A DNA stretch of 64,000 bases, taken from assembly GCA_045599445.1 (NCBI GenBank), contig JAZRWB010000061.1, positions 12,623-76,622 of the forward strand, in the 5' to 3' direction. The translations under genes were made by a program, and so were the position numbers. A model generated the notes under the pieces. It made no database searches. It was not told the origin of the DNA and worked only from the letters and a program-made list of their open reading frames with translations. Shown here piece after piece: positions 1 to 26,753 of the stretch (within the stretch, counting starts at the first letter, position 1; every line of letters begins with the position of its first letter). This stretch comes from Kiritimatiellia bacterium (GTDB lineage: Bacteria > Verrucomicrobiota > Kiritimatiellia > RFP12 > UBA1067).

Positions 1-973
1 TAACGCAGGCAGGCATCGTAACCGATTTAATTGATGCACAACCCTTAAATGCTTCATTACCAATACTGGCAACAGTTGAAGGCATCTCAACCGACGCAAG
101 ACCACTACAACCATAAAATGCACGATAGCCAATACTAGCCACACCCTCTGGCATCGTCACTGATGTAAGTCCGATACAGCAAGAAAACGCTTCAGCACCA
201 ATTCTTGTAACACCAGGCGGCAACTCTATCGATTCCAGCTTCTCACAGCCGTTAAACATTTCGTTATAAATATCGGTAGCATTTTGGTCAACAACCACTT
301 TCTTAATGATCTTATATGCATCTGGAAATGTCGCCGACAGCATTGTTACACACGTCGGTATTGTTACCGTCTTTATTCCACCGCAATCACTAAACACATA
401 ACTGCCAATGTATGTTATACTTGATGGCATCGTCACAGATTCAAGCTCGCTACAGTAGGAAAACGCACTCTCTTCAATACGCGTCACAGAATTTGGTATC
501 ACAATAGATGTTAATTTTTGACACCCCATAAATGTGGCTACGTCAATACTCACTACGCCACTCGGTATCGTCAATGATGTAAGCATAACACAGTTAGCAA
601 ACGCATAACTACCAATATTCGTGACACTATTAGGTATAGCTACCGAATCCAACTCAATACAAGAACTAAACGCCCATTCGCCAATACATACAACACTTGA
701 TGGTATTGTTACCGAGGTCAGCTTGCTACACCCAGCAAACGCATATCCACCAATCCTCGTCACTGGATATCCGTCTATTACCGACGGAATCATTATCGCG
801 CCAGCAGTTGATTTCGGAACAGCCGTCGTAGATGACGAATCACTGCCAATACTCGCCTCGCCATTACTAATAGTATATGTCCACTTAATACCAGTATTTG
901 AATCCGTCCAAGTATAGACCGCAAAGACACTAAATGACATTAAGGCGCATAATATCGCAACAATCTTTTTCAT
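1..973 (-). CDS. BspA-type leucine-rich-repeat surface protein, N-terminal part (gene runs off the left edge)
   Basis: ATG at 973..971 preceded by a GGAG RBS. Signal peptide MKKIVAILCALMSFSVFA. Repeated ~23-aa units of the form IPSSVxxIGxxAFxxCxxLTSVTIP, typical of BspA/LRR_5 repeats. No stop codon before position 1. Confidence 0.8.
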   Translation of the reverse strand, partial: MKKIVAILCALMSFSVFAVYTWTDSNTGIKWTYTISNGEASIGSDSSSTTAVPKSTAGAIMIPSVIDGYPVTRIGGYAFAGCSKLTSVTIPSSVVCIGEWAFSSCIELDSVAIPNSVTNIGSYAFANCVMLTSLTIPSGVVSIDVATFMGCQKLTSIVIPNSVTRIEESAFSYCSELESVTMPSSITYIGSYVFSDCGGIKTVTIPTCVTMLSATFPDAYKIIKKVVVDQNATDIYNEMFNGCEKLESIELPPGVTRIGAEAFSCCIGLTSVTMPEGVASIGYRAFYGCSGLASVEMPSTVASIGNEAFKGCASIKSVTMPACV

Positions 974-1025
974 GTTTCTACTCCTTAATCTGCACTTCAA
1001 TCAAGCGCTCTCCACCCTCGCGCAG

Positions 1026-1115
1026 AAAAAAAAGAGTGGCGTGCCTTCAAATTTATGTCTTAAAGGAGGCACCGCTAAGAGCCCGAGATAAAACATAAAT
1101 AGAAGACACGCCACA
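1026..1115 (-). terminator. Candidate intrinsic terminator (read on minus strand)
   Basis: An 8-bp GC-rich stem, gtggcgtg (revcomp of plus 1108-1115) pairing with cacgccac (revcomp of plus 1036-1043), encloses nested helices and is followed by a U8 run (plus 1026-1033 A8). Confidence 0.4.
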
Positions 1116-1348
1116 TGGAATTTACCACGTAGCGCACCTACATACTTCGCTTTATCTCTTGGAAATTAGCGGTTTCCCTTTAAAGCTCAGTACGCAAGTT
1201 GCGTACGTTGTCAGGATCCTTTTGGGAGTTCCCAACTCCTCTCCTCGGCTCGTTGTGGACACCGATTTTGAGGTTTTGGCCTCGACGATTTCTCGCCTCA
1301 GCCCGATAGCGGGCGCAACTGCCACCCGCCGATGTCAAAGATCAATGT
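1040..1348 (-). ncRNA. Candidate ~320-nt structured RNA or long 5' leader upstream of the BspA-like gene
   Basis: Bounded by the extended -10 promoter at 1353-1367 (minus: TGTGGTATAATAG) and the terminator at 1026-1115. Contains the hairpin gtacgca-act-tgcgtac (~1213-1229). The six-frame ORFs here look non-coding. No known RNA family recognised. Confidence 0.3.
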
Positions 1349-1352
1349 GCGC

Positions 1353-1367
1353 CTATTATACCACAAC
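1353..1367 (-). promoter_or_regulatory. Extended -10 promoter (TGTGGTATAAT) firing leftward
   Basis: Minus strand reads TGTGGTATAATAG, matching the motif found upstream of many genes in this window. A -35-like TTGGCG sits ~17 bp upstream. Confidence 0.45.
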
Positions 1368-1434
1368 GCCCTCGCCAACAGCAACTGCAATTATTTCCGA
1401 CACATTTTATCACTATTGCCCCTGGTATCGACCA

Positions 1435-1582
1435 AACTGTTATATAAGAGATGCTATTGCCTTATATAGAACTTGTCAATGCGTCATATACCGCCCACCA
1501 AACCGTAATATAACGCAAAATCAACTGTTATATAACGCCCAACCAACTGTTATATAACGCTCGGACAACCGTTATATAACAC
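1435..1582. repeat. Iteron-like array of 7 units at exact 22-bp phase, consensus AACYGTTATATAACGC
   Basis: Units start at 1435, 1457, 1479, 1501, 1523, 1545 and 1567. The four right-hand units are near-identical. The core GTTATATAAC is a perfect 10-bp palindrome. The array is flanked by AT-richer sequence. Confidence 0.75.
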
Positions 1583-1932
1583 TTACCCTATACCCTTGGC
1601 ACCCTTCATCCGCACCGAAAGCGGCAAACGAAAAATACCTCTAATTGACCGAGCGTACGCGAAGGTCTCGTTGCGGAACGAAGGGATGGAAAGCGGTTTG
1701 GCGCACTTCGCAGCGACGGCAAAAAAAGGCGGAATGACCCGATTTCGACGCGCCGCCCTCGTAGCGAAGCGAGAGGTAAAAGGCCGCGAAATCGATGTCA
1801 TACCCGACTTTTACGCCGGAAGGTTGGAGTGTATTCACGACAACCTTAGTGAGAATAGGCGGCCAAACCGCTTTTCATCCCGTAGTGACGCTATCGCGAT
1901 GCCAGAAACGAGCTTATCGCCTTCTCGTTCCG

Positions 1933-2506
1933 CTACCAAAATTGCCAGTTTCCGGTGGCGACGACCCATGCGCCGAGGACGAGATTAGTCGTAGCGTGGG
2001 CGAGGACGGCGGCGAAGAGGCCGCGCTTCAGATACAAAAGTCCGTAGACCATTCCCGCTATCGCTCCGACGAGCCAGCGATCGTGCTCGATTGCGAAAAG
2101 CGCGACCATCCACCAAAATCCGGCAAATCCTATAAGCCATTTGCGAAAGAAGAGCTCCTCGGCGACGGAAATCACCAACGCACTTCCCGCGAGCCGAACG
2201 GCGATCAGCACTGCGTCGCTTTCGGCTATCGCTTCGGTTCCGCCCTCGCCGAGAATGCACCACTCGCGATAGAACGCAAATCGCTCGGGCGCGACCCAAA
2301 TTACGAAAACCGCAATGCCCGCGACGAGTCCAATTACGGCATCAGACCATTTGAGCGGCTTCCAGTCGATTGCGCGGAACCCCCAAACGAGCGCGAGCGC
2401 GACGAGAATCGTGCGCACGGCGTAGGCGAGCGGCGTCGCCGGCAACGCCGCCATCGCGACCATCCACAGAGCGTACGGAAGAATCAGCCGAATGTTTTCG
2501 CGCTTC
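1933..2506 (-). CDS. CPBP-family (CAAX/Abi) intramembrane metalloprotease
   Basis: Motif EELFFRKWL followed by a second motif with His residues, and multiple TM helices. Start is proposed as GTG at 2506 in a GTGA overlap with the upstream stop. The ORF-track ATG at 2610 would overlap the upstream gene by 100 bp. Confidence 0.6.
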
Positions 2507-3074
2507 ACAGCCACTCCCTCAATTTCGCCGCGAGCTTCTTCGCGCAAAACGCGCGGTTTTCCTCGAACTGTCCGACCATCGACCCCTTCCCGTGGACGTT
2601 GGTAACGCACTTAATCGAGACGAACTTCACGCCGCGCTGATTGCAAACATCGGCAATGGCCGCGCCTTCCATATCGCGCAACTCGCACCCGAGCTTGCGA
2701 AAAAGCGCAAGATCTCCGTCATCGTCGGTGAAGCGGTCGCCGGTTGCGAGCACAAGCCCTTCGTCGCCGACGGGAATGTAGGGACTCGTGCGTCCGTCCT
2801 TTACCCCGACTTCGGTGTGGTTGAGCTTGGCAAGGTCGAAGTCGTATTCAACCGCCGCCTTGACGCGATAGACGTCGCCGACATTCATCTTTTCCCCGAA
2901 ACCGCCGCAAAACCCGACGTTGACGACTTCGGTCGCGCCGTCCTTGATCGCCTCGGTGGCAGTGGCAGCGGCATTGACCTTGCCGATGCCCGAAATATAA
3001 AGCCGATCGTCGCTTTTCAGAAACGGACGCACCGCGTCCGCTTCGTCAGCCATTGCAATGACGAACGCCCGCAT
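2505..3074 (-). CDS. mtnN: MTA/SAH nucleosidase family protein (Pfs/MtnN or futalosine hydrolase MqnB-like)
   Basis: PNP_UDP_1 fold. The N-terminus MRAFVIAMADEADAV matches the MKIGIIGAMEEE region of MTANs. Start chosen at M9 of the listed ORF. Confidence 0.7.
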   Translation of the reverse strand: MRAFVIAMADEADAVRPFLKSDDRLYISGIGKVNAAATATEAIKDGATEVVNVGFCGGFGEKMNVGDVYRVKAAVEYDFDLAKLNHTEVGVKDGRTSPYIPVGDEGLVLATGDRFTDDDGDLALFRKLGCELRDMEGAAIADVCNQRGVKFVSIKCVTNVHGKGSMVGQFEENRAFCAKKLAAKLREWL

Positions 3075-8810: not shown

Positions 8811-11800
8811 TTACTCGGACTTCTGCAGACGGATCTGGAAGAAGTGGTAGCCAGTCGACTCCATTGTCTGCTGCCTATTCCATCCTTCAATCTTTTGCCA
8901 GTCATCCTTCAGATCATTCTTGCCGTAAAGCACTTCTTCATAGCCAACAACTTCGATGCGGGGATAGACATAGGGTACGCCGGACTCGTCGAGCATCAAC
9001 TGATAGACGACGGCCTCGGTGAGCTGAGCGACATTGAAGTCGGGGTTCTCGATCACGATCTTCTCCAGCGACATGCACTTGTAGAAGGCCTTCTCGCCGA
9101 TAGTCGCAACATCCCTGCCTACCGTAACCTCGTTGAGCTTCGTGAAGTCCTTGAAGAAGCGCTTGCCAATATTCTCGACACCATCACGAATCACGGTTTT
9201 CTCGACCGATCTCTTCTGCTTAGTGGTGAAGGTCGGAGCGACGTCGGCGCTACCCTCGCCGGTAACGACGAGCTCTTTACCATCTTCGGAGATGATGATG
9301 CCGTAGTCCTTGGCCAGCGTACCCCTGAAGGTCGATCCCTCGACGACGATGTCGTCTTCACCTTCCTTCGAAAGTACGATCTTCACCGTGATATTGGCCT
9401 GCTTTTCCGAGTTGTTGTCCACCGCGCAAGTGTAGTCAGTCGTAACAGCAACAAGCTGCGCGTAGGTAATCTGGCGATCGACGCTCTTAAGTATCCTGAC
9501 GGGCGTATCCGCCTCAAGCGCGAACGCCGGGAAGTCGATCATCGACTCGCCATCCTGCGGATTCGAGCCCTTGAGCGTGAAGTCCTCTGCGTCGAGCGCG
9601 ATATCCGAGGAAATCTCGAAATCCACGTTCCAATCGCCATAACCGATCGCCGCAGTGCCAAGCGTGTACTTGATCGCGAGGTCAAAGCCGACAATCGTCG
9701 TCAGTTCAACCATTGCCTCGGGAACGACATTTTTCTCGAAGGTCACCTTGCCATCGGTCTCAGTCTTCGTCCAACCGGTTCCCGCCGTTACCCCAGAAAG
9801 CGCAAAGCCCTTCGTATCAATCGTAATCGCCTTGGAAACCGCCACGCTTGCCGAACTTTCGCGTGCAAGAACAACCGTATCTCCATCGCTTGCCGCATTA
9901 ACCGCGCTTGCAAGCGTCGAGTAGAACGTCGGCGTTCCGTTCACATCGCGATACGCGACATTATTCCGCGCACCCAACGTTAATCTGTTTTTCGCGAGTG
10001 AAACAACCTTGGTGTTACCGTTGTAGAGACAGAACTCCACCTCGCAAATCGCACCGTCATTCTCCGCCGCTACGCTGTAGAGACCAACTGTCAGCGCGTT
10101 CTTGAAATTGTCTTCCGTCAGAAAGCGCGAGAGCTTAATCTGCGAACCGCCAAGATACTGATCTACAACAGTAAAAAATGCGCGGTACTCGGTATTGGCC
10201 GGAATCTCCGCCGGCAACTCCTTGCTCATTATGTAATTAAATCCAATCTTCTCGTAGCCGATTTTCTGATCGCACTTGATGACCACGTCAATCGTGTAGC
10301 TACTGAACGGCGTAATCGCCGACTCCGCCTCGGCCTTCGCGAAGAAACTCGATGGATTGCTCGCCGAGAACGTCGGCGACGAACTGTAAGCCGAAACCAG
10401 CGACGAATCGGTAATCGCCACCAGCTTGAACTGTTCATCCAGCGAACTTGAGCCGCCCTGCTTCGCCATGCTACCGATAAGCTTCCGGCCGATACAGTAA
10501 TACGAACCACTCTTCGTCTCCTGATAGTCCTCCCCGAGATAACTCTTAATCGAATTTGTGAACTTGCCGCCCCTGAAGTCCGTCGTTGCGCCCGTGTTAA
10601 CAGTTATGGCGCCGGTAAATGTTCCGTTATAGGTCGTCGCAGTCGAACCCGACTTGAGCGTCAACGCTCCCGTGTAGGTTCCATAGGCGACCGTGAGCTT
10701 GCCGGAAACGTCGACCGCGGGCGCAAACCTGCCGACGGCACCGACCGAAGTGTCGATAATCGTGAGGTCGCCTGCCGACGAAATCGTCACCTTGCCTGGA
10801 CCCGAGAGCGTAAAGCCGTTGAGATCGAGAATGGCGGCACGGTCAATGGTCTCGCCAGCCGACGCGATACCAGCAGCCTGCGCCAACTTAATCACCTGAC
10901 CATTCGCCGCTTTGACGGCGTCGGTAAGCGTGTCATACTTGTTGCCCGAATCAGTCTCCTTGCCGATGTAGAAGTTGTAGTCGACGGTCTTCTCCACGAC
11001 ATCGTAATATTTGGTCTCCTCGTTGTAGAGCCCCTTGTATCCCACCGCGCAATACTTCGTCGGATCGGTCGTGTAGCTTCCGCCGACCGTGCGGACGTTG
11101 GTGGTGGTGGACGGAAGTTTGCAGGCGCCAACGGTCGTAAAAACGTAGTAGCCGCCGCCTTTGTTCTCTTCCAGCAGTTTGCCCGTGCCGTTGTTACTGA
11201 CACCGAAAGCATTGCAATCGTAAAACTCTACGCGGCTGGTCGCGCCGGAATTGGCGTTAATGCGAACCGTGGCCGTCCCTGTGCAGCCGACGACATAGGT
11301 CTTGCCCCAGCTGTTGTAGGCATTATCGCCACTCGAGTGCGAGATTGTCGTTCCGTTAACGAGATAAACCTGCGAGGATGCGACCACGCTAGAGATAGTG
11401 AACTGGAAAGTCGCACAGTCAACGCGGAAACCCGCACCCATCTGCTTGGTGTTGTTTGATAGGATCCACTTGCTGTTGAGTGCGCTCACATCTGCCAGCT
11501 TAATGCTCTGCGCGTCCTTCAAAAGCACGACGAACTTAGTTGCCGTCGGAGCGGTGGACGGCGTCGGATACGCCGCGTTCAGTGCTTTCGCGACCGTATC
11601 GTACGCGCCGTCGACCGAACTGATGGCGTTGATCGCCTTCGAAGTGTTGACCGTGACGACCGCAGCCGCCGGCGAGGCGCAGTCCGCCGTAACCCAGTTG
11701 GTTGCACCTTCAAAACGAACAGCCCCCTTCTGTGCGCAAGCGGGCGCGGTTCCCGAAGTCGTACCCGTAGTTACAGTCGAGACGGTCGTCTTGCAGTACT

Positions 11801-12734
11801 TGAACGATGAATAACTCGCAAAGGCGTTCGCCGGCGTAATTACGTCGCCCTGCGAGATCTCGATGAAGTTAAGCGCATAGGATCCGTTTCCGGAAATCTT
11901 GCCGCCATTGGCGAGCGTGCCCATCACAAGGAGTCGTCCATCGTTCACGACATTCAGGCCGCTCGGCACCGTCGCCGTCTCGCCCTTCGGAATGGTGATG
12001 GTCGCGTTAGACGGAATCTGCACCTTGAGGAGGTTGGGGTTCGCAAGCGCGGCAAATAACTCGTCCTTGGTCGTTACGGTGGCGACCTTGTCCGCGGTGA
12101 GGAACTCTGCCTCAACCGTGGTGTCGGATGTAGTGGAAAATGTGTATGGGTTCGTATCTATTCTGGTGTCATTGATCTTCCATGAGTTGAAGGACGAGTC
12201 GCTGGTCGCGAGCGTCACCGTTGTCACCTTTGTAAGATTCGTTAGGTCCGCTGGCGCCGCATCATTAACGGTATACGAACATCCCGCCGGTGGTGCCGCG
12301 AAGGTAATGGAAAACGGATCGTACTTAATCTCATCGAAAACGGCATAAATGGTCTTGATGACGCTGGAATTCGTCGGGGGATTGTTTTTGTCCGAACTCG
12401 TGACAGCATAGGTATATTTCGTTCCTGCCGTTAGCGTTCCACTACCATCCGTATTTGTCGACCAACCTTTAAACTCAAACCCCTTATTAGCTTGGGCAAA
12501 GCCATAAACAGTTACCGATGCTGAATCTCCAGTTGATGAATTAGAGCCGACAGCGCTTGTTTCCCCGCTTGTGGCATTAGAACTTGTTGATGCATAAACT
12601 TTGCCGGCACCGGTCGGAGAATTGGACGAAAGCCCAACCGTAAGTTTAGCATAATAGGTCGTACTAGTCGCCCGTGCAGAGGTGCTGGCGAAGAGCGACA
12701 AAAGCAGAAAACTATATGCGAGAAGATTCTTCAT
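8811..12734 (-). CDS. Large secreted adhesin-like protein (1307 aa) with beta-helix-type repeats and a C-terminal BspA-LRR-like segment
   Basis: Signal peptide MKNLLAYSFLLLSLFASTSARA. Thr/Ser/Gly-rich repeat stretches. The segment IGEKAFYKCMSLEKIVI resembles a BspA LRR unit. An extended -10 (TGATACAAT) lies at ~12745-12760. Confidence 0.7.
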   Translation of the reverse strand: MKNLLAYSFLLLSLFASTSARATSTTYYAKLTVGLSSNSPTGAGKVYASTSSNATSGETSAVGSNSSTGDSASVTVYGFAQANKGFEFKGWSTNTDGSGTLTAGTKYTYAVTSSDKNNPPTNSSVIKTIYAVFDEIKYDPFSITFAAPPAGCSYTVNDAAPADLTNLTKVTTVTLATSDSSFNSWKINDTRIDTNPYTFSTTSDTTVEAEFLTADKVATVTTKDELFAALANPNLLKVQIPSNATITIPKGETATVPSGLNVVNDGRLLVMGTLANGGKISGNGSYALNFIEISQGDVITPANAFASYSSFKYCKTTVSTVTTGTTSGTAPACAQKGAVRFEGATNWVTADCASPAAAVVTVNTSKAINAISSVDGAYDTVAKALNAAYPTPSTAPTATKFVVLLKDAQSIKLADVSALNSKWILSNNTKQMGAGFRVDCATFQFTISSVVASSQVYLVNGTTISHSSGDNAYNSWGKTYVVGCTGTATVRINANSGATSRVEFYDCNAFGVSNNGTGKLLEENKGGGYYVFTTVGACKLPSTTTNVRTVGGSYTTDPTKYCAVGYKGLYNEETKYYDVVEKTVDYNFYIGKETDSGNKYDTLTDAVKAANGQVIKLAQAAGIASAGETIDRAAILDLNGFTLSGPGKVTISSAGDLTIIDTSVGAVGRFAPAVDVSGKLTVAYGTYTGALTLKSGSTATTYNGTFTGAITVNTGATTDFRGGKFTNSIKSYLGEDYQETKSGSYYCIGRKLIGSMAKQGGSSSLDEQFKLVAITDSSLVSAYSSSPTFSASNPSSFFAKAEAESAITPFSSYTIDVVIKCDQKIGYEKIGFNYIMSKELPAEIPANTEYRAFFTVVDQYLGGSQIKLSRFLTEDNFKNALTVGLYSVAAENDGAICEVEFCLYNGNTKVVSLAKNRLTLGARNNVAYRDVNGTPTFYSTLASAVNAASDGDTVVLARESSASVAVSKAITIDTKGFALSGVTAGTGWTKTETDGKVTFEKNVVPEAMVELTTIVGFDLAIKYTLGTAAIGYGDWNVDFEISSDIALDAEDFTLKGSNPQDGESMIDFPAFALEADTPVRILKSVDRQITYAQLVAVTTDYTCAVDNNSEKQANITVKIVLSKEGEDDIVVEGSTFRGTLAKDYGIIISEDGKELVVTGEGSADVAPTFTTKQKRSVEKTVIRDGVENIGKRFFKDFTKLNEVTVGRDVATIGEKAFYKCMSLEKIVIENPDFNVAQLTEAVVYQLMLDESGVPYVYPRIEVVGYEEVLYGKNDLKDDWQKIEGWNRQQTMESTGYHFFQIRLQKSE

Positions 12735-13853: not shown

Positions 13854-15086
13854 TTATTGCAAGTAATTAGTCGCTGGGACTATCTTTACAACTTGATTAT
13901 CTACTGAAACCACTTCTTCTTCATGGTCGGTAATCAGAGTAAGGCGCGGGCAATTAAGCTTTCTACCAGCACCTAAAAGCGAAGAAAGTTCACGTTTGCG
14001 TGTTTTTTCGTTTTCTATCGTATACGACACTTGAATAAGTTCGACAATCTTTCCGTGTTCGGTCAAGCAGAAATCAATATCATAGGATTGATCTCGATAA
14101 TAAAAGATTTCCACATCCATCGCCTTTCTCCGGCGCAATAGTTCCAAATAGACGATATTCTCCAATCGCCAGCCAAGTTCCTCGTCAGTTCCCAAAACCC
14201 CGGTAAAGTACGAGATAAGCGCCGGATCGGCAACATACAACTTGTCGTTGCGAATACGTTCGACTATTTTAGTAGAATATTTGCGAATCCGCGACACTAA
14301 ACACGACTCTTCCAAGTAGGATAGATACGTTTGCATAGTATGCGCACTGGATACGCCGGCCTTAACTGCGAGCGCATCATGGGATATCTCGCGAGCATAT
14401 TGCTGCATAATGACATACGCGGCGTCAATGAATCGCTGAGCATTACGCACTTGATGACGACCAAGGATATCTTTAGAGAGGATCGAATTATACAAAGCGG
14501 TGATATATCCGCGAATATCGGGCATCGCAAATGTTTCCGGAAGTCCTCCACGGAAGAAATAGTTTTTCCATGCCTCTTTGACGGGAAGCTTTGACCAAGC
14601 GACATACTCGCCAAAGGAAAAAGGATAGACCTCAATCGGTAAAAATCTACCTGTTAAATGAGTAGCCAATTCGCTCGTAAGTAGCCGCGCATTGGATCCG
14701 GTGATTACCACATGATTGCCTGATCGCAATAAACGATTGACAAAAAGATGCCACCCTTCAACATTTTGAATTTCATCAAATAAAAAGTGTTTAACTGGCC
14801 CATAGACCGCAAGCACCGCCTGTAAGACATCATCTAACTGATCAGCGGTTAGATTCAATAGTGCCTCATCGTCAAAGTTTACATACCCAAACGTCACCCC
14901 CGAGTCCGACAATGCTTTACGGCAAACCACCGACTTACCAGCACGTCGCATCCCAAGAACTGCCTGAGCAAAGGGACTGTTTACCTCGACGCTCCGCATA
15001 GAGGAGCGGAAAAGCACATCTTGGACCAATAAATGTCTTAACTCCTCGCGTTGCTCAAGGACTATCTTCTCAAAGTTTCTTGACAT
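13854..15086 (-). CDS. AAA+ ATPase (AAA_14) with C-terminal DUF4143 / PD-(D/E)xK-like domain
   Basis: Walker A GMRRAGKS, Walker B FLFDEIQ. Start set at MSRNFEK because GGAGG lies 5 nt upstream, rather than the ORF-track ATG at 15107. Confidence 0.8.
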   Translation of the reverse strand: MSRNFEKIVLEQREELRHLLVQDVLFRSSMRSVEVNSPFAQAVLGMRRAGKSVVCRKALSDSGVTFGYVNFDDEALLNLTADQLDDVLQAVLAVYGPVKHFLFDEIQNVEGWHLFVNRLLRSGNHVVITGSNARLLTSELATHLTGRFLPIEVYPFSFGEYVAWSKLPVKEAWKNYFFRGGLPETFAMPDIRGYITALYNSILSKDILGRHQVRNAQRFIDAAYVIMQQYAREISHDALAVKAGVSSAHTMQTYLSYLEESCLVSRIRKYSTKIVERIRNDKLYVADPALISYFTGVLGTDEELGWRLENIVYLELLRRRKAMDVEIFYYRDQSYDIDFCLTEHGKIVELIQVSYTIENEKTRKRELSSLLGAGRKLNCPRLTLITDHEEEVVSVDNQVVKIVPATNYLQ

Positions 15087-15107
15087 TTTACCTCCAAAGA
15101 TATGCAA

Positions 15108-15221: not shown

Positions 15222-16394
15222 CTAAATGGCGGGAGGAAACCACATAACCGAACGGAAATTATCCGCTCGAACCGATGCATCTCCAAACGATTTAATCGGC
15301 TCGCCATCGTAAACAAGTAAAGGATCTACCGCCGATAAATCACTTTGCGAATAAACCAAAAGATTTCGAACAAGATCTTTTGAGAAAGTCCTTGCCGACT
15401 TTACCTCAACCGGACGCACTTGCGCACTCTGCGAAACAATCAAATCGACCTCGAACCCCTTCTCGGTTCGATAAAATGCCATCCTCGGCTCTCTTCCGCG
15501 ATTTGTGAAGTTTTTACGTGCGTCCGCCACAACCAAGTTTTCAAAGAGATTTCCACGAAGCGGATCCCTCGCTAATTGATTCGGTGTCTCAATGCCCAGC
15601 AAGTAAGCCGCAAGTCCTACGTCCGTAAAATAAACCTTCGGGGATTTGACTACCCGTTTGGAGACATTGGAAAAATACGGTGGTAGCCGGAATACAAGAA
15701 AAGACGCCTCAAGAACGGAAAACCAACTCGAAAGCGTCGTTGCCGAAACTCCAACTTCACTTGAAAGCGTAGAAAAATTCACAATCTGCCCCACGCGCCC
15801 CGCCAATAGAGTCACGAACCGCTCAAACAACAACAGATCTTTCACATTCACCAGTCGCCGCACATCGCGTTCTACATACGTTCTGAAATAATTACGATAA
15901 TAATTCGTCGGGTCTTTCCTCGTTCGATAGAGTTCGGGCATAAACCCACGGAGAATGAGTTCGTCCGTCGTCAGCTCCTTTGATTCGGACGCGATTTCGT
16001 CAATTGAAAGCGGCAAAAGTTCAAGAATACTCGTCCGTCCCGCCAACGACTCGTCGATCGTCTCCGCAAGACTCGCTTGTTGACTTCCGGTCAGAACAAA
16101 CTGCCCGCATCTTTCACGATGCTCATCGACCATCACCTGAACCGCTGAAGCAATTTCCGGGACATGCTGAATCTCATCAATAATCAGCGGCTTGGTATGC
16201 ATCAAAAATAACGATTTGTAATCCGCAATCGCTAAATCCCTCGTCTCCTTATCCTCCAACGAAATGTAGTCAAAGTCTGGACAACATGCCTTCGCAAGAG
16301 TTGTCTTACCAGATTGTCGCGGACCAAAAATAGTTACAACGGGATATTCGGCAAGCGAAGATTTTAAAATAGAAGTTAATTTACGGTCAATCAT
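15222..16394 (-). CDS. AAA+ ATPase (AAA_14) with DUF4143 domain, second paralog
   Basis: Walker A GPRQSGKT, Walker B LIIDEIQ, C-terminal FEVDLIV...VEVK motif. Confidence 0.8.
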   Translation of the reverse strand: MIDRKLTSILKSSLAEYPVVTIFGPRQSGKTTLAKACCPDFDYISLEDKETRDLAIADYKSLFLMHTKPLIIDEIQHVPEIASAVQVMVDEHRERCGQFVLTGSQQASLAETIDESLAGRTSILELLPLSIDEIASESKELTTDELILRGFMPELYRTRKDPTNYYRNYFRTYVERDVRRLVNVKDLLLFERFVTLLAGRVGQIVNFSTLSSEVGVSATTLSSWFSVLEASFLVFRLPPYFSNVSKRVVKSPKVYFTDVGLAAYLLGIETPNQLARDPLRGNLFENLVVADARKNFTNRGREPRMAFYRTEKGFEVDLIVSQSAQVRPVEVKSARTFSKDLVRNLLVYSQSDLSAVDPLLVYDGEPIKSFGDASVRADNFRSVMWFPPAI

Positions 16395-16550: not shown

Positions 16551-19500
16551 TTACTTATATTCAACCGGCGTGACGATCGTCTGATAGAAGCCCTTGCCTT
16601 CCGGCTTCGTAAGCGTGAACTTGACCTCGTCCTTGCCCGCAAGCTTATTCTTATCGCCTTCCTCATTGAAGCCAAGGTTGGTAAGCTCGCCACCCTGCTT
16701 GAGCGAGTAGTAGAAGCCCTTGAGCGGATCTGCAATCGTGAGCTCGGTCGTATCAGCGGAGAGCGCAACCGAGAGCACATCGGCCTCAGCGGCCTTGACC
16801 GCCTCCTCAACCGCCTCCTCGCCATCCTCGTTCAACACAAACGCAACCTTCTCGCCAACGACCTGAGCCGTGAAGTAGCTCTGGTAAGTCGAGAGCGCTT
16901 CACCGGTAAGCTCAACCGGCGCCTTGAGGAGAGTTGCCTTTTGAGCTTCGACTTCACCAGCATACTCTTGCGGATCCTTGCCGGACGGGATGTCAATATC
17001 CTCTCCAGGAACGACCGGCGAGGACTTCGCCTTAACCGTGAGGTTGTCGATCGAGCAGATTTCCTTCGTAGTCTCGCCATCGGTGATGACGAGCTTGAGC
17101 GTGAAGGTCGCATCGTTCTTAAGATCGATGTTCTTCACTCCGCACTTGAAGGACTGGATCGCCTCGAAGACAGTCTTGACCGTGATGTCGTCTTCCAATC
17201 CAACCGTCGCCAAGACGCTGACAGGATCCCCAGCCGTGCAGGTGTAGTCCTTGTCAACCCAGCCATACGAACCGTAGTTGCCACCAAGCTGGACTTCACC
17301 CTCGCCGATTGTGACATCCGAAATGAGGTAGAACTTGGCAATCCAGCTGTCGTAGCCAACACCGATATTGCCAGCCGTGAACTCAGCCGCCGCCTCGTAG
17401 CCCTCGGCAGTGGTCGGAGCAACCGTAGCCGTCGGAAGGACCTTGGCCGCTGGAATTGTGAACTCGATATCCTTGGTAAGAACGGTATCATCATCCTTAG
17501 CAATCGTGAGCGTTACCGTGAAGGTAGTCTCCTCAGTAAGCGCAATATTCTTAAGTCCACAATTGAAGGTCTTAACATTTTCGGCAATGTAGTTCCACGG
17601 CATATCGATTACCGCGTATGGCTCGTTTGCCGTAAGATCGCTCGTAAGCGGCATATCAATCCACTCGCCATCGTAGTTGTTGTTAATGCCCGCTGGATCT
17701 TCAAGATCGGTCGCATTGAACTGACCCGCGAGAATAATCGCATCTTGCGCAACATTCTTATCGGACGTAATCGTCAAACTCGCCGTATAGTCAGCATACT
17801 TCTGAGCACCCGCCTCCGTCGCCTTGAAGGTAGCCGCCGCGGCAAGCTCTTCCGGCTTGTCAGTCATCGCCTCAACCGTCGCCTCTGGCTTGATCCACTC
17901 AGCCGTGTAGGTGTAGAGTTTGACGCCTTCCGCATAAGAGACTGCCGTTTCAACGATCTTCGCGCCCTCGACCGTCACAATATGACCATCTCCGACATCA
18001 GGATTGTCGATGAGCTTGATGAACGTCTGAACTTGGCCACGCTCCGGAACGAGCGTAATCACCGCCGAATCATCGTAGAACATCAAGACTGATGCTTCGA
18101 GCATGGCAATATTGTCCGGATAAGTCTCGTAATCCATACCCTGACCATCGGCACCAATCACGAGCGGACCGGCAATCATACAAGCGCCGCCGACATTGAT
18201 GATCGTGTGATAACCGTGAGAACCGCGTTCGATGACGCCAGCAAGCACCAGTCCGCTCGCGCCATTGCCGGGAACGACGTTGATTGACTTCTTCGCCGCA
18301 GCACCGTAGAAGTTGTAGAGCAGTCCATCATCAGGCAGCGTGATCGTCGTGATCGTCGCGCCCGGAATCCCCTGCACCTTCATGATTGTGAGCACCGTCT
18401 CGGCCGGGAAGGTATACGCGTACGCAACCACCATATCAACCGCGAACTTGATCGTACCGTGCGTATCGATAAGCGCGAGAGCCGTCGTTTCGTCGTAGAT
18501 AACGATCATGCCGTTGTTCACGATGTTCGCCGGGTTAATCAGAACGGTCTTCTCGTTGAGGTCGAGCGTGACATCTTCGGGAATCGTAAGCGTAAGCGAA
18601 CTGAGATCCGCGTTCTGAAGAACGATTACCGTATCGCCATCCGTTGCATCAGCAAGTGCCGCAGGAATGTCGAGGTAATCGACATCTTCAATCCTCGCGC
18701 CCGCGTCGACCGTGACATCATCCTCAGTAATATCATTGGCAATCTCAGGATCTTCCGTGACAGAATAGTAATCAAATTCGAGTCCGTCAGTGCCGTCCTT
18801 GAAGAGCTTGCCGGGCTGAACCGTGTAAGTAACGGTCATGTCCGCACCATACGGAATCGCAGCATAGCCGCCGATAACGGGGATTGGCTCCTCAACCCCT
18901 TCAACCGTAACCACGACATCCGTACCAGCAATCTCCGGAATCGCGACTTCCACCTGCGCATACGAGACCGTGAGCTTGCCGCCCGCATAGACGAGCATGT
19001 AGTCGCCTTCAACTATCTCGCCCTCGGCGTCGATAAGCGTGATTTCCGGAATCGTCGCCGGCTCAGGCATCGTGATGAAGCTGCCGACCTCGCCGATAAC
19101 CGCCAAGGTCTCGCCAAAGGTAACGCCGCCCTCGGCAATCCACTGCTGACCCGCGAAGGTAATCGTCGCGTCATCGGCGACCGCAATCTTCGCGTTGTTA
19201 ACTGTGCCCTCACCACTACCGAGCGTAATGCCCATGCCGCCAATCATACGGACCTGACCAATATGTTCCGAGGCGTCAACAACCGCGATCTTCTGCGTAA
19301 CATTCGGCTTGTTGCCGATGAAGTTGCCATTTCCGCTGACCTTGCTGAAGATAACCGGCGAGTAGCTCGATCCGTCGGTAAGTTCAAGACCGGCAAGATT
19401 GTTATTCGCGAGAATAACTTCTGGCTCAAACTCAACGCCATCCTTCAGATAACCAACGACGCCAGTAAGCTTAACCGTCGTATTCTCGTTGCCATACTTG

Positions 19501-22500
19501 TTGAGGTCCGCGCCAGTCACCGTGACATTGGTGAACTCGACCGCGCCAGCCCAATCCTCGTCAACCGTGAAGAGCGGAGACGCTTCCGTGAGCGTAGCGC
19601 CGGTAACCGCGATCGTGCCCGCGCCCTGAATCGGTGTCGTAAGCGGAATCGCAAGCGCCGTCGTAGGAATCGTCATCGTCACGTCCGAAGGAACGACGAT
19701 CTCATCCTCCGCAAAGAGACGCGGCATATCCGCCTCGCCGTCCTCGGTCAGCGCAAAGAGCGTATCGTCGGAGAGCGTAGTCGAGCTCTTGAGATAGAGC
19801 GTCGTCGCCTCACGATCCGCGATAGTCGTCACGCCATACGCCTTGTGCTCGGCGCTATAGCCGAACGAAATCGAACGTCCGGCCGGAGCGGACGGAAGCG
19901 CGGTGCAAGTAACCTTGTCGCCAAGATCATCAGTCGTACCCGTCAAAGCAACGAAGCCAATCTTGGCAAAAGTGCTGACAGGAGCGGCACTATAATCGAA
20001 TGCGACCGAACCTTCGCCCGAAACCACGAACGGACCGTTCGCAATCGAGATCGAGCCGTACTCGATCGTAATCGGGGACGCAACCGTTGTAAGACCGATG
20101 TTAATCGCTTCTGCCGCACCCGCCTTGAAGGTCATCGCCGCGCCCGAGAAAGTCATTGCCTCGTAGTCGGTTTCTTCGGTGAGATCAACCGTGATTGATG
20201 CCGCACCAGCCGCGCTGATATTCAACGTCGAACCAGCCGCAGGAAGATCAACGGTCTCCGACGTCTTCGTATTCGTCCAAGAATCGGCCAACGTCCAAGT
20301 ATCATCGCCCTCCGCAAATTCACGCTCGAAAGTACCGTTCGGCGAGTTGTAGGGGAACTCGTCGGCAAGCTGCTTAAGCGCATTCGGGCCCAAAGCACCT
20401 TCGAAAATACGAACCGCCTGAATGGCCGTATCATTCGTCGCATCCTTCGAGCTCTCAATCATCGTGTTCTGCTTACCACCGTGAATCGAGCCAACCTGAA
20501 TACGATTACCGAAGGAAACGTTCGAAACAGGGGTTACGTTCCAAAGGTTACCATCAAGATAAACCGTAATCGAATTCGCCGTCTTCACGAACGCATAGGT
20601 ATGCGAGGTCGTGAGCGCATTGGCAACCTGCATCGTCGCAAGCGACTGGTACGCGCTATTGCCAATCGTACGGGCAATCAGAACCTCAGTATCAGTCGAG
20701 CCCTTGAGAATCGCAATGCTGCCACCAGTCGAAGTACCAAAGGCAATCAAGGCCGCATTTACGGTATTAGGAACGACACCGGCAACGACACACGTCCATT
20801 CGGTCGGATAATTGATTGTAAAGTCCGAATACGGAGTCGCCTTGGTGTTCAGCGCCTTACCGTAAACAAAGTCTTCACTCTCAAGGATCCGTTCAGATGC
20901 ATGCTCCTGACCATCTTTGTATCCAGTATCCCAGGTTAGCGTGCTCTTGATCTGACCAACGCTCGTAAGCGAATCGGCCTTGAACGTCCAGTCGTAGAGG
21001 CACGCTTCACCATCGGTCTTGATCGTAAATGACGCAGTTACGGTAGTACCCGAAACCGTGGTGGTAAGCGGGGTAACACCATCCATATCGTAAACAACGA
21101 GCGATGTGCCAACAGGGACATTGACAATCTTAACTGTTCCGTCATCAGCCACCGTCGCGACAACCTTGATCTTACCCTCGCCCGACGTCGTTATATTGCC
21201 GATCGTGCTAAAATCGCGCACATACCCGACATCATATTCGCCGCCGGCGATTTCCACGCTACCCGTGCCCGAGGTGGACACGCTCTTCACATACGACGCA
21301 TTATCCAAAACAACCTTGCCCGCGTTAGCGACGACGGTCACGTTGCCTTGGGATGCACCGATCTTGAGCGTTCCTGCGCCCGTCTTGGTCAAGGTCCTTG
21401 TCTGGTTGGACTTGACGGCGCCAGTGAGCTTCAAGGTCATACCATCGCCGACATTAAACGTCGTGTCGGCGGAATACTTGAACGGCGCGGAGACCGTCGC
21501 TTCCGTCGAACTGCCGTTAACGGCCGCGTTGATCGGAATATACATATCAAGCGCGCCGTTTCCATCACCAGCACCCGAAATCTCGGCGCCGTCATAGATG
21601 TTAAGTGCGCCACTGCTACCCTTGTACGTCCAACGATACCCGCCCATATTGAGCGCACCATAGACATTGAGCGTAAAGGAAGCGTTGTCCGCATAACTGA
21701 ACGCATCGCCCGAAGCGGCGATCGCCGTCGCTCCCGCGTCGATCGTGAGCGTACCACCGCCGCTAATGCCCTGGCTCGCGAACTTCAAGGTCGCCTGGCC
21801 GTTCACGACTTCAAGCGTACCGCCGGGAACCGCGTTGTTCGCGTCAAGGTTCACATAGCCCTCGGTCTTCAAGGTGCCGTTGACCGTAAGTGCACCAGTG
21901 CAAGTAAAGGTATTATCCTCGGTCTCGCCGCCCTGAATAGTCCAAACTTCATCCACTGGAATTGTGACATTGGCAGTGAGTTCAGTATTGGCGGTAACCA
22001 CTTGTTCAAGCGTGAAATCACCCTTCGTGAAGGTAATATCACCAATTGGTGCCGTAGCATCATAGGTAAGAACCGTGTTGCCTTCCAAGGTAATCTCGGT
22101 CGCAGCCTCCGCGTAGAACTTGCCAGCATCCCAAGTAATAGTGCTCCAATTCTGGTTGCCACTAATAGTTGCCGTATTCTTGAGCGCGAGATTCCACTTA
22201 GCCGTGAGATAATCTTCAACCGTCTTGAGTTGATCCGCAGTAAGAACCGCGTTAAAGATAAGAACTTCGCTGAGCTTACGACCGCCCGAACGATTGTCCG
22301 AGCCACCACGATCGCCCGAGAAGCAGTCCGTCGAGCAATTCGCCGAAGTCGTCATCGACACCACGCGGAAGCCCTCGGGAAGAACATAGCTCTTGCCGTC
22401 TCCCTCGTTCGCGCCATTATCACGAACCGAGAACGCAACTGCGTTGCCATTAAAGCACTTCGTCGAACCCGCAGCCGTCTGGTCGCGGTGGAAGTTATAG

Positions 22501-25500
22501 ACCTGACGATCGCCCATCAAAAACGCACGAGGATCGTTCTTAATATCAATGACTTCAATCACCGTCTTGGCATTGTTATCGACTGGCTCAAAGCCAAGGT
22601 CAATGTGGCTATTGCACTCGCCGAAATCGAGGTATTCACGAAGCTCACCATTAACGAAGGTCGGCGTGTCGGTAATATTGGCAGTCGTATATGCCGCCGC
22701 AGCCGTCGTGCCGCAAAGATCCGCCCACGCGGTAACCTTGTTGTTATCGCCCGTCGTCACTCCGCGCGAAGCATCAAAGCGACGAATAAGCGATGTATCC
22801 TCGAGAATCGCTGCAACATCAGCAGTATAGTAGTCGGACTTGGTGATTGCGAACACAATCGCCTTCATCTCCCATTCTTCAAGCTCAACCAACTGGAACT
22901 CACCTTCCATGCCCTTCGGCAACTTACCGGTAAGCGTGCACTTGAAGTCGTTGATCGTCGCGTCGCTCTCTCCAATCGTGAAAGCGCTTGCGGCCACGAC
23001 CAAGATCTCCTCACCCACGACATACTCGTCTTCGCAGACGAAGGTAATCGGCAAGCCACTCTCCGGAAGCGTAATCGTTCCCGTCGCCGTCAAGCTTGCA
23101 CCGTTGTGGGTAATGTTGATCGATCCGCCTTCACCAAAGGCCAAATCACCCTCAATATTCGTCGGTTCCGCAACATTGTAAGGCGTGGTAATCTCCGACT
23201 TCTTGAGGACGATGTAGCCATCGCCATCAATTTCCAGCTTATCAGCGCTAATCGTTGCACCCGTACTATCCTTGAATGTCAAGCCCTCGGGAATCGCGCT
23301 CGCCTTGGCGATCTGTCCGAACGGGAAGCCAGTAGGAAGCTTGATGGAGCCAGTGGAAGCCGCATCAATCGTCCAGCTAAGCGGCATCTCCGTCGTGCCA
23401 AGATCGATATCGCCGTTAATCACAACCGTATTCGTAGCCGTGCGATTAATCTGGCCGCCCGTAAGCGTAATCGTCTGCGTATAGGCCGCCGGGAGATTGA
23501 GCGTGCCCGCGCCGGTCTTGGTAATCGCAAAGTCGCCCGAAATCGCCGAAATGGTCGCCGTGCCCGACGCAACTTCAATCTCAGTCGCCTTGGTAAGAGT
23601 CAAACTGTTGACCGTGCCGCCAAGCGCGAGCGAGCCATCATCAACTGTAATCCCCAGGGTAACATTGTCGGTGATTTCAAGCTTACCTGCGCCACGCTTG
23701 CCAAGCACACGACTGGTGTTGATGCCCTTCAACTCGCCGACAATCCTCAAAGTCGAACCCGCGCCGACGTAAAAGCCCGCGTTAGGATTGTTTTCCTGTC
23801 CGATATACATGTTGGCATTGTTTTCAATCGTAATCGTCGCAACGCCATTTTCACTCTCGGGAACATAAATCTGCTCCTTGCCGCTCACATTGCCGCCGTT
23901 TATGCGGAGATGATCGCCAGAATTGTAGACATGGGTCGACGAACCCGGATCAAGATAAAGCCGTGCGCTGAAGAAGAAAGTATTGCTGGAAGAATAATCG
24001 CGCAAATTGAGAGTTGCGCCAGAATTGACGCGAACTACGCCATTCGGATTAGCCGCCGCATTCCATCCGCAGAAATCCCTACCATAAAGGTTAAGTATCG
24101 TACCTCCCGTAACGAGGATGGTCGGATTCTCCGCCGTGCCATTATTCGCGAAAGACGTTCCCGGACCACTATTGCTGCGCTTGAACGCATGAGTACCGCC
24201 ATCAAATACGATGTGCGTATTGAATGTGTCGTTCCCAACAAAGTCCAGCGTTGCGCCGTTAGAACCAGAACCGATGAAGGTGAACACCTTGTCATCGCCC
24301 GCGACCTTAATCATGTCCAAAAGCGCGCTATCTGCCGTAAGCCCGCTCGTTGCATCAAAGCGATAATCAAACTTGCCCGCGAAGTCGACAGTCGCCGTCA
24401 CCTTGCCGAGGAAGGAGTTGATATTCGTAGCCGCACCCGCGATTCCAACGACCTGCGCAGTAGTATCGCCAATGAGCTTGATATTCTTAGCAACTACCTC
24501 CGTGTCAATCGTCAAGGTCGGCGAACCGATAAACGTAAGCTCAACTGGCGTATTCGCCGTCGGAGCGGTGCCGCCCTCCCAAAGCGCCGACCAAGTGGTA
24601 TTCTCCGAAATCGTCGCCGTTACCGCTGGCTGTGGCGGAGCCACCTTCACAATCACAATCGCCGCAATGCAACCACGCTCCGAATTACTCGCCTTTGGCG
24701 AATTTGTAATCTCGAACTTTTGCGTGGTAAGTCCAGAAAGACGCATTACATTCTTACCGAGAATCGGCGTCAACTGCTGCGAAGCGCCCCATGCCGCAGT
24801 TGAATTCGCAACCGCTTCACCATTCTCATTTGCGCTATAATTTACGCCGTTAATGGTCTTGTAGGAGAATTTCGCATTTCCCGTATCGGTCGCGCAGATA
24901 ATATACACATCATAGCGATCAAACGGAACAGTAGTTTTAAAGGAAATGTTACTATCGTCGAGGTAACCTTTTAGGTAAGGAGTGGTAGCATTGTTCCACT
25001 GATAAGAACCGCCATTATACGAAACTGGGATGGTATCAGCAAGAACCGTCGAACCATCCGAACCGAACAACTTGGCATCAAGCGAGCCAGAAGTACCAAC
25101 ATTATTCCAGGTGTTACCGTAAATCGTCAAGTCAGGGATTCCCGCTTCATCGCTATCACCAAGCTTGCCGGAATCCTGCTTGAAGTTAATCGCCATACCG
25201 CTACCAACAGGGAGCCACGCATAATCAAGCGAGGTGACGCCCTTGAAATCAAACTTGGCCAAATCCGCAGGTGCCGCCTCGCCAAGAATCTTAAGCGCAC
25301 CATCATAAACAATCTTCGCCTGACCAAAAGCAAAAGTCTCATCGAACTCAAGCGTCTTCGCCGCCGTGAGATTCACGACAACCTTGTCGTCCGAAGTGCA
25401 ATCCGCAAACTCAGTCGCGTTATTGATGTCACTAACCTTAACCGCCTCTGCCTCAATCGTCGTCTCTGGCAACACAGGAGGAGGAAGCTCCTTAACCGCG

Positions 25501-26246: not shown

Positions 26247-26262
26247 TGTGTTCAATGTAAGT

Positions 26263-26418
26263 TCAAAATTGATGGGGTAAGGCTTTTTGTTGACGCTTTG
26301 CAAGACCATGCTCGTAGCGACGCGCACGCTTCGCCAACACAGAATCTTTGGCTTCGGCTTCCGTAGCCATTTTTTGCATCTTCGCCCAGTTAGCGATGCC
26401 TTCTTCTATAGTCGTCAT
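26263..26418 (-). CDS. 51-aa ORF downstream of the toxin gene (possible truncated or atypical antitoxin)
   Basis: MTTIEEGIANWAKMQKMATEAEAKDSVLAKRARRYEHGLAKRQQKALPHQF. Sits where a HigA-type antitoxin would be, but has no recognisable HTH. Its stop lies just before repeat A. Confidence 0.3.
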   Translation of the reverse strand: MTTIEEGIANWAKMQKMATEAEAKDSVLAKRARRYEHGLAKRQQKALPHQF

Positions 26419-26420
26419 TG

Positions 26421-26753
26421 TCACAAGCCAAGGCCTTTCATGATGGCGCGAGCCTTCTTAATCTCCTGCTTCGGTGTTTTCTGCGTCTTCTTGATGAAGC
26501 CATTGAGAATGTAAATCACATTACCAACAATCGTATAGCAATAAAACGCCCTCCCTTGCTTACCGTCTGCTCGGACGCGTAATTCAAAGAGATTGTCACC
26601 AATTTTCTTAGCATCTGGGAGACCCAGGCGTCCGCATTTCGCCAACATTTGGATCGCACGATTGAAATCGACAAACATAGGCAGAGGCAACGACATGAAG
26701 AATTCATTCGCTTGAGCCGTAATAACAATTTGCTTTTTCGTTTCTTTACACAT
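26421..26753 (-). CDS. RelE/ParE-superfamily toxin of the phage Gp49-like (DUF891/HigB-like) family
   Basis: LFELRVRADGKQGRAFYCYTIVGNVIYILNGFIKKTQKTPKQEIKKARAIMK matches the Gp49-like pattern (LxE[LI]R..., RxxY..., LLxGFxKK[ST]QKTP). Strong RBS AAAGGAGG 6 nt upstream of ATG. Confidence 0.7.
   Translation of the reverse strand: MCKETKKQIVITAQANEFFMSLPLPMFVDFNRAIQMLAKCGRLGLPDAKKIGDNLFELRVRADGKQGRAFYCYTIVGNVIYILNGFIKKTQKTPKQEIKKARAIMKGLGL

Follow-up and report, generated by a model that had tools for sequence, protein, structure and literature searches.

A seven-unit, 22-bp-phased repeat array around a predicted promoter forms a conserved cassette in Kiritimatiellia

What is an array of seven direct repeats, set at an exact 22-bp period, doing between two genes of a Kiritimatiellia bacterium? 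The array lies in a 64,000-nucleotide stretch of one contig (here called the window), between the last gene of an operon and a gene for a BspA-like surface protein. A sequence-only reading of the window had proposed either iterons of a plasmid or phage type of origin or a stack of operators for a dimeric regulator, with a possible part in cooperative control or phase variation of the BspA-like gene. The Kiritimatiellia are almost entirely uncultured and, to our knowledge, nothing is known of their transcription factors or promoters. Arrays of phased operators, or of iteron-like repeats, that enclose a promoter are well known; the one described here is a new orphan member of that group, from an uncultured class and with an unusually regular seven-site layout.

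The regularity of the array holds up to closer inspection. Laid out in 22-bp register from 1435, the sequence from 1435 to 1588 falls into seven units in exact phase (Table 1). Tandem Repeats Finder gave a period of 22 over 1486-1580, and a second repeat search returned repeat families spaced 22, 22, and 22. The 10-bp core, GTTATATAAC, is a perfect palindrome and is intact in three of the seven units (core starts 1527, 1549, and 1571), while the other four are degenerate, with one mismatch at 1439 and 1505, two at 1483, and three at 1461. Seven exactly phased units with a palindromic core, as first described, are thus confirmed by the register layout, both repeat searches, and shuffling, whereas the statement that the four right-hand units are almost identical needs amendment, as only three have a perfect core. 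At one mismatch or fewer the core has five matches in the 64-kb window, all five in the array, against 0.58 expected from shuffles; none of 100 shuffles reached five, which excludes a chance origin. Random scatter of the motif, named beforehand as an observation that would speak against a real array, is therefore not what the window contains, and two-mismatch matches outside the array occur at chance level.

Table 1. Features of the array, its cassette, and the adjoining region (coordinates in the window; box centres are relative to the predicted P1 start)
Feature	Coordinates	Strand	Description
Array units, in register	from 1435		AACTGTTATATAAGAGATGCTA / TTGCCTTATATAGAACTTGTCA / ATGCGTCATATACCGCCCACCA / AACCGTAATATAACGCAAAATC / AACTGTTATATAACGCCCAACC / AACTGTTATATAACGCTCGGAC / AACCGTTATATAACACTTACCC
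Array site	1435..1588	minus	GC-GTTATATAAC-RGTTG, then variable linker of ~5-7 bp
Box 7 (distal)	1571..1580		perfect core; centre ~ -131.5
Box 6	1549..1558		perfect core; centre ~ -109.5
Box 5	1527..1536		perfect core; centre ~ -87.5
Box 4	1505..1514		GTAATATAAC, one mismatch, same in 3/3 genomes; centre ~ -65.5
Box 3	1483..1492		GTCATATACC, two mismatches, identical in 3/3 genomes; centre ~ -43.5, abuts -35 hexamer
Box 2	1461..1470		CTTATATAGA; inside 17-bp P1 spacer, centre ~ -21.5
Box 1	1439..1448		GTTATATAAG, one mismatch, full AGTTTGG flank (minus strand); covers predicted transcription start
P1 -35 hexamer	1474..1479	minus	TTGACA, invariant in three genomes
P1 -10 hexamer	1451..1456	minus	TAGCAT (TAGAAT in L015 and L058); predicted start near 1444
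Conserved cassette, ~190 bp	1421..1610	minus	left flank GTGCCAAGGGTATAGGGTAAG, seven 22-bp units, right flank AGTTTGGTCGATACCAGG
MITE-like insertion, 242 bp	1656..1897		just outside cassette, between CPBP gene and cassette
CPBP/Rce1-like gene	1933..2610	minus	Pfam PF02517; last gene of upstream operon, 3' end faces cassette
P2, extended -10	1355..1363	minus	TGgTATAAT; promoter of structured RNA, outside cassette; conserved in L015, L063, and L064
Structured RNA/leader, ~325 nt	1022..1348	minus	ends in long hairpin (1114-1036) and T8 (1033-1026)
BspA-type LRR_5 gene	2..973	minus	Pfam PF13306, E = 1.5e-72; cut by window edge; 42% GC

Around the core, the array site is asymmetric, in that RGTTG follows the core on one side only. 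The full site, GC-GTTATATAAC-RGTTG, is present in the four distal boxes and in the box at +1, and the two boxes squeezed between promoter elements have a degenerate core only. Within each box it is the central TATAT, and not the outer half-sites, that varies least, a pattern untypical of the sites of a classical HTH dimer.

The 960 bp in which the array lies had been described as noncoding; they are not featureless, as they also hold the MITE-like insertion and, on the minus strand, a promoter-RNA-terminator unit (1363-1022). The region has ~50% GC versus ~56-58% for the window, and the cassette itself has a GC content of 40.5% against ~57% for its host. The MITE-like insertion has imperfect terminal inverted repeats of ~30 nt (1673-1702 and 1862-1891).

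To find relatives, we scanned one genome per species for two adjacent perfect cores 22 bp apart. This returned 51 loci from many phyla, two of them in Kiritimatiellia metagenome-assembled genomes (MAGs): L015 and L048, the latter extended as L058 and derived from a 45%-GC genome. The evidence on conservation and distribution is therefore thin, as it comes from two lineages and three genomes and from a scan that asked for two adjacent perfect cores. L015 is a near-conspecific MAG, with 97% identity to the window across the CPBP gene and 92% across the segment that runs from cassette to RNA terminator; by blastn it carries the cassette at the same locus with ~92% identity. The MITE-like element is absent at this L015 site; a copy 87% identical and in the opposite orientation lies at 2660-2879 of L015, adjoining a tRNA-Thr gene. 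In L058, blastn aligns the cassette at 86.3% identity over 190 bp (11638-11827), although the two genomes differ in GC content (57% versus 45%) and their orthologous proteins are only 70-79% identical. Here the cassette is non-syntenic and its flanking genes are unrelated: the upstream neighbour encodes a sulfatase-like membrane protein and the downstream one a metallophosphoesterase. At both edges of the cassette, the homology of the window and L058 breaks off sharply; weaker homology possibly extends to ~1650 and ~1405. These edges and the unrelated flanks indicate that the cassette is a discrete unit of ~190 bp, located at non-syntenic positions in the two lineages. In both it is co-directional with the gene whose 3' end it follows, and it reads downstream.

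The flanking genes do not carry the array with them. The CPBP orthologue in the L058 MAG and the sulfatase-like orthologue in the L015 MAG each lack an adjoining array. In a synteny walk the same was true of CPBP orthologues L053-L057, with the exception of the near-identical strain, and of sulfatase-like orthologues L059-L062. Each sequence examined by nhmmer and PWM has one cassette copy, and the two-core scan found one locus per MAG. A family-specific two-unit pattern had one match in metagenomes (L052), which is unrelated, and two-unit, promoter-junction, and three-unit patterns had none in viral contigs. Neither the PLSDB plasmids nor the INPHARED phages contained a match to the 960-bp region in distant-mode blastn. 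Searching the literature for the core sequence yielded primers and unrelated matches only, and an exact look-up of the window's CPBP protein returned no record.

The occurrence of the same ~190-bp block with sharp edges at non-homologous sites in two lineages raises the possibility of a mobile element or element end, either a MITE-like unit or a transposon end with subterminal transposase-binding sites and a promoter, in the style of Tn7, Mu, or IS21. Ends with multiple 22-bp sites are known from Tn7 and Mu, the genome carries another MITE, and the window and L015 share a weak terminal symmetry, TGCCnnnGGTAT ... ATACCnnnGGCA. This symmetry, however, is lost in L058. Furthermore, no second, inverted array occurs in 62 kb of the window, 5 kb of L015, or 10 kb on either side in L058 (21.6 kb), there is one copy per genome in the two-core scan, and there is neither a recognisable target-site duplication nor an adjoining transposase. 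The conserved promoter and the stronger conservation of sites than of linkers (see below) point instead to a host function, and we give the mobile-element explanation little chance.

The layout of the array is conserved in detail. All three genomes have seven units with the same individual deviations. In L058, the fourth core reads GTTATATTAC and the fifth GGTATATGAC, with GCATTGACAA after it; the sixth occupies the space separating the promoter hexamers, and AGTTTrGyCGATACCAGG comes after the seventh. Neither of the degenerate cores GTTATATTAC and GGTATATGAC differs between genomes. Retention of deviations in single units across species indicates selection on a fixed layout, not decay. Substitutions between the window and L058 are concentrated in linker phases 15-21, with 10 of 112 site positions changed versus 8 of 30 linker positions (Fisher p = 0.025, for an a-priori split and two lineages), the pattern that would be expected if the array sites were under purifying selection, and not one expected of a repeat that was copied recently or is decaying. 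The presence of the same seven units, each with its own deviations, in two independent MAG assemblies also rules out a misassembled repeat collapse, which had been raised as a concern; three assemblies agree.

These comparisons also bear on whether the conserved sequence could act as protein-coding sequence or as RNA. Open reading frames do run through the array (132 aa on the plus strand of the window, 67 aa in L058), but a 22-bp period is out of frame, and 10 of 44 aligned residues are changed for ~18 nucleotide changes, indicating no coding constraint. That the array is coding sequence, a chance occurrence, or an assembly artefact thus has a practically negligible probability. In the RNA or single-stranded DNA alternative, the self-complementary cores of neighbouring units would pair into 10-bp hairpins with 12-nt loops, either in a read-through transcript or in single-stranded DNA. 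Folded as RNA, the cassette has a z-score of -3.6, and no terminator separates it from the upstream gene. However, any series of repeated palindromes would give such a z-score; pairs are broken, with no compensation, by boxes 2 and 3 and by a G-to-A change in box 5 of L058; there is no Rfam match; and the RGTTG flank and promoter hexamers would play no part in such hairpins. We regard action as RNA or single-stranded DNA as highly improbable.

The promoter hexamers belong to P1, a predicted sigma-70-type promoter embedded in the proximal units. The promoter scan found TTGACA-17-TAGCAT in the window, a match at 10 of 12 positions, and TTGACA-17-TAGAAT in L058, at 11 of 12, each the best sigma-70-type match of its region. 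The linkers that carry these hexamers are the best conserved of the array, at 11 of 12 positions each. With boxes centred at about +1, -21.5, and -43.5, the sites overlap the core elements of the predicted promoter; positions at +1, in the spacer, and beside the -35 hexamer are the classic ones for repression, and a promoter close to consensus is usually under the control of a repressor. A sigma-54 promoter, considered on account of a conserved TGGCAC on the opposite strand of the left flank, was rejected, as the GG-to-GC spacing is 13-14 in all genomes and not 12.

On this evidence we tentatively prefer to read the array as a set of operators that represses P1, the two together forming a self-contained promoter-operator cassette of ~190 bp, a preference that stops a little short of calling it probable. 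Of the two families of explanation offered originally, a stacked operator array for a dimeric regulator is the best fit within the window, given an embedded predicted promoter whose +1, spacer, and -35 flank are overlapped by boxes. We infer that P1 fires, that a protein binds the array, and that its binding is repressive. A putative sequence-specific DNA-binding protein would recognise a site of ~15-17 bp, GC-GTTATATAAC-RGTTG, every 22 bp, a period of about two helical turns that would place the sites roughly on one face of the DNA. Cooperative binding would be nucleated at the four full upstream sites (centres ~ -65 to -131) and would spread over the two degenerate boxes, beside the -35 hexamer and inside the spacer, to the full site at the start point. 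The occupied array could then occlude or loop out the near-consensus minus-strand P1, which should be strong in the absence of the protein and repressed in its presence. Two points favour repression over activation: P1 is near consensus as it stands, and both +1 and the spacer are covered by boxes.

Several known systems resemble the proposed operator cassette. In multi-operator repression, too, a strong promoter is combined with an operator at the start point and in-phase upstream operators; in the lac, gal, and deo loops and the four-operator hipBA promoter, auxiliary upstream sites raise occupancy by cooperativity. Unlike these, the cassette has seven contiguous sites at a strict 22-bp period and is thus denser. 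The core itself has an operator-like precedent in more than 15 Bacillaceae genomes, in which the interval from a promoter to the gene for L-lactate permease contains a pair of TGTTATATAACA boxes spaced 22 bp. This TGTTATATAACA-N10-TGTTATATAACA pair has the same 10-bp core, centre spacing, and placement at a sigma-70-type promoter. However, it consists of two symmetric 12-mers downstream of the promoter and has a conserved target gene, whereas the Kiritimatiellia cassette consists of seven boxes with an asymmetric core-plus-RGTTG site, arranged around and upstream of the promoter, and its target is not conserved. The Bacillaceae pair was not assigned to LutR/GntR; the regulator adjoining one such pair (L006) is of the IclR type, with no link shown.

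The core also occurs in unrelated arrays, recorded here as separate observations. Among the CPR and Salinivenus loci (L007, L020, L023, L029, and L045), the CPR genomes have two or three TGTTATATAACA boxes 22 bp apart. Four Bacteroidales loci (L001, L025, L034, and L047) have three or four 22-bp direct repeats (GGGTTATATAACTCATAACTGT) and no Rep gene nearby. In a Limisphaerales MAG (L044), four 11-bp tandem copies of the core are found immediately upstream of a GNAT gene.

What the Kiritimatiellia P1 would control is less apparent. Downstream of it, the window has a short variable stretch and then the separately promoted structured RNA and BspA gene, while L058 has an unrelated stretch of ~250 nt with a terminator-like hairpin at its end and no unusual degree of structure (z = -0.67). 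The downstream sequences of the window and L015 show no similarity to that of L058, the best local score being within the shuffle range. As no sequence downstream of P1 is conserved, a regulated product common to both lineages is missing, which is unusual for a conserved operator-promoter. Moreover, no HTH, RHH, or response-regulator gene adjoins the cassette in any of the three contexts, and no regulator gene was recognised in the annotated parts of the window. With no adjoining regulator, no conserved product, and two lineages only, a good part of the probability stays with an iteron relic or decoy.

According to that alternative, the array is of the plasmid iteron type, a relic or a functional in-trans copy of an origin and rep-promoter region. 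In the chromosome it would titrate or "handcuff" a Rep-type initiator whose gene lies elsewhere, such as on a plasmid, and so serve incompatibility or copy control, or else it would be a decaying remnant. The anatomy matches that of Rep_3/pi-type iteron arrays, which share the 22-bp direct period, a similar number of units, an asymmetric site of ~17 bp, and a promoter in the proximal units reading outward; the gamma origin of R6K has seven 22-bp iterons. About 26 nt past the last core there is an SD-like AGGAGG/AGGGG with an aligned GTG/ATG start. The non-syntenic, patchy distribution and the low GC content of the cassette (40.5% versus ~57% for the host) are as expected of imported DNA. The Rep_3 genes of three Psychrobacter replicons (L004, L019, and L035) adjoin true iterons, four or five perfect units of 22 bp with the identical GTTATATAAC core; this likeness arises by construction, since the scan asked for that core and spacing.

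Against an iteron array stand the absence of a rep gene within 62 kb on one side in the window and 10 kb on both sides in L058, in keeping with the initial remark that none lies nearby, and of any initiator gene in Pfam scans of the flanking genes of the window, L015, and L058. No DnaA box (TTATCCACA at one mismatch or fewer) occurs within 300 bp in the three genomes, and there is no AT-rich unwinding block outside the boxes, the flanks being 43-57% AT. The frames behind the start codon, of just 23 and 41 aa, are unrelated, and no plasmid or phage record matches. The cassette also differs from Rep_3/pi-type arrays in its chromosomal location and in its units, which are diverged rather than near-identical, and the conservation of their deviations across species speaks for selection on a fixed layout. 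We therefore consider a plasmid-type iteron array unlikely, though well above negligible. The more specific suggestion of an origin of replication at this site finds no support: in addition to lacking an initiator, a DnaA box, and an unwinding block, the array has housekeeping genes on both sides, and in both the window and L058 the GC skew keeps the same sign on either side of it.

It is also conceivable, if quite unlikely, that the cassette is a Rep-less chromosomal iteron array maintained by selection, which binds a plasmid initiator in trans and serves as a titration or anti-plasmid incompatibility locus. The embedded promoter would in that case report occupancy by the initiator. In a related variant, the cassette may be a self-propagating mobile promoter-operator unit.

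Repeat arrays that enclose a promoter are in addition a hallmark of centromeres of the parC/parH type. The parC of R1, the 20-bp repeats of pSK41, and the parH of TP228 are coated by a small dimeric protein and have an autoregulated promoter. The cassette could accordingly be a centromere-like or architectural nucleoprotein platform of the type Ib/II par kind, its repeats coated by an RHH or HTH adaptor that autoregulates the promoter. It has phased short repeats, an embedded promoter, and one copy per genome seen, but in none of the three contexts is a gene for ParA, ParM, TubZ, or a small adaptor found after the promoter. Its location is chromosomal and varies in position, and its repeat sequence is different from those of plasmid partition arrays. 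A partition-type platform has, in our estimate, a slim chance of being correct.

The cassette is a sharply defined and conserved bait for capturing the putative binder, as it presents seven copies of a 17-bp site around a promoter near consensus. Because its distribution is patchy and non-syntenic, candidates for that binder could also be nominated by phylogenetic profiling. Should the binder be a replication initiator, the array would be a chromosomal iteron decoy, which would be the more unusual finding.

The part first suggested for the array, dedicated control of the BspA-like gene, is not supported by the organisation of the adjoining region. The BspA gene has its own extended -10 promoter, the ~325-nt RNA, and a terminator. 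Homologues of the RNA are present in the window (1022-1363), L015 (1087-1421), L063 (425-757, reverse complement), and L064 (30-364, reverse complement); the last two were found by a search of the protein collection with a spurious antisense ORF spanning the array region, which retrieved the RNA part only (P0201 and P0202) and no further arrays. In both L063 and L064, the RNA has its own TGnTATAAT promoter and terminator and no array upstream, and in L063 it is followed by a BspA-like gene whose N-terminus resembles that of the window's. The reverse holds for L058, which has the array but lacks both the RNA and a BspA gene. As the RNA-BspA unit exists in L063 without the array and the array in L058 without the unit, they are neighbours in the window's species and not one system. 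Phase variation of BspA through the array fares no better, as all three genomes have seven units and there is no sign of variation in repeat number.

The array is thereby separated from the surface-protein gene, and the RNA that precedes this gene is itself uncatalogued and strongly structured. It has a folding z-score of -6.9, and none of its predicted pairs is broken between the window and L015; the four homologues are more than 85% identical, and their alignment contains few covariations. Rfam has no match in the whole window at gathering score, and chance-level matches only in 900-2000 at E <= 10. The RNA could be a leader/attenuator or an sRNA, and is a better candidate than the array for control of BspA.

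Two further observations concern this RNA locus. Homology between the window and L015 spans the RNA, terminator, and Shine-Dalgarno region and stops at the start codon (973 in the window, 1464 in L015); past it, the window has the 42%-GC BspA gene and L015 an ORF of 112 aa rich in CxxC motifs, which is a strain-level gene swap behind a conserved leader. L064 has a second TGTGGTATAAT promoter upstream of the RNA locus (~640-700, reverse complement), with a short GC-rich hairpin and a T-run behind it; this may be another small RNA.

The remainder of the window is chromosomal in character. The operon upstream of the cassette is of a housekeeping type (MTA-nucleosidase-like, amidohydrolase, hydrolase, CoaB-like, TerB-DnaJ, and CPBP), and further genes encode ThrRS, EPSP synthase, FeoB, PrmA, and a T2SS F protein, with some low-GC patches. 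A tRNA/tmRNA scan of the window found none. Low-GC patches (45-49% GC) hold three paralogous minus-strand genes for AAA_14 + DUF4143 ATPases (13857-15107, 15225-16394, and 53443-54657). Mu-like head genes occur on the plus strand, one encoding Portal_Mu fused to a PBECR3 nuclease-like C-terminus (56299-57915) and another a Mu-like prophage protease (58896-59915), which suggests a prophage or phage-derived element that starts at ~56 kb and runs off the window. Just upstream of a giant ORF of 3285 aa (16551-26405), a minus-strand ORF for a Gp49-like (HigB-type) toxin is found at 26424-26753, and a small partner ORF at 26.7-27.1 kb may overlap with it.
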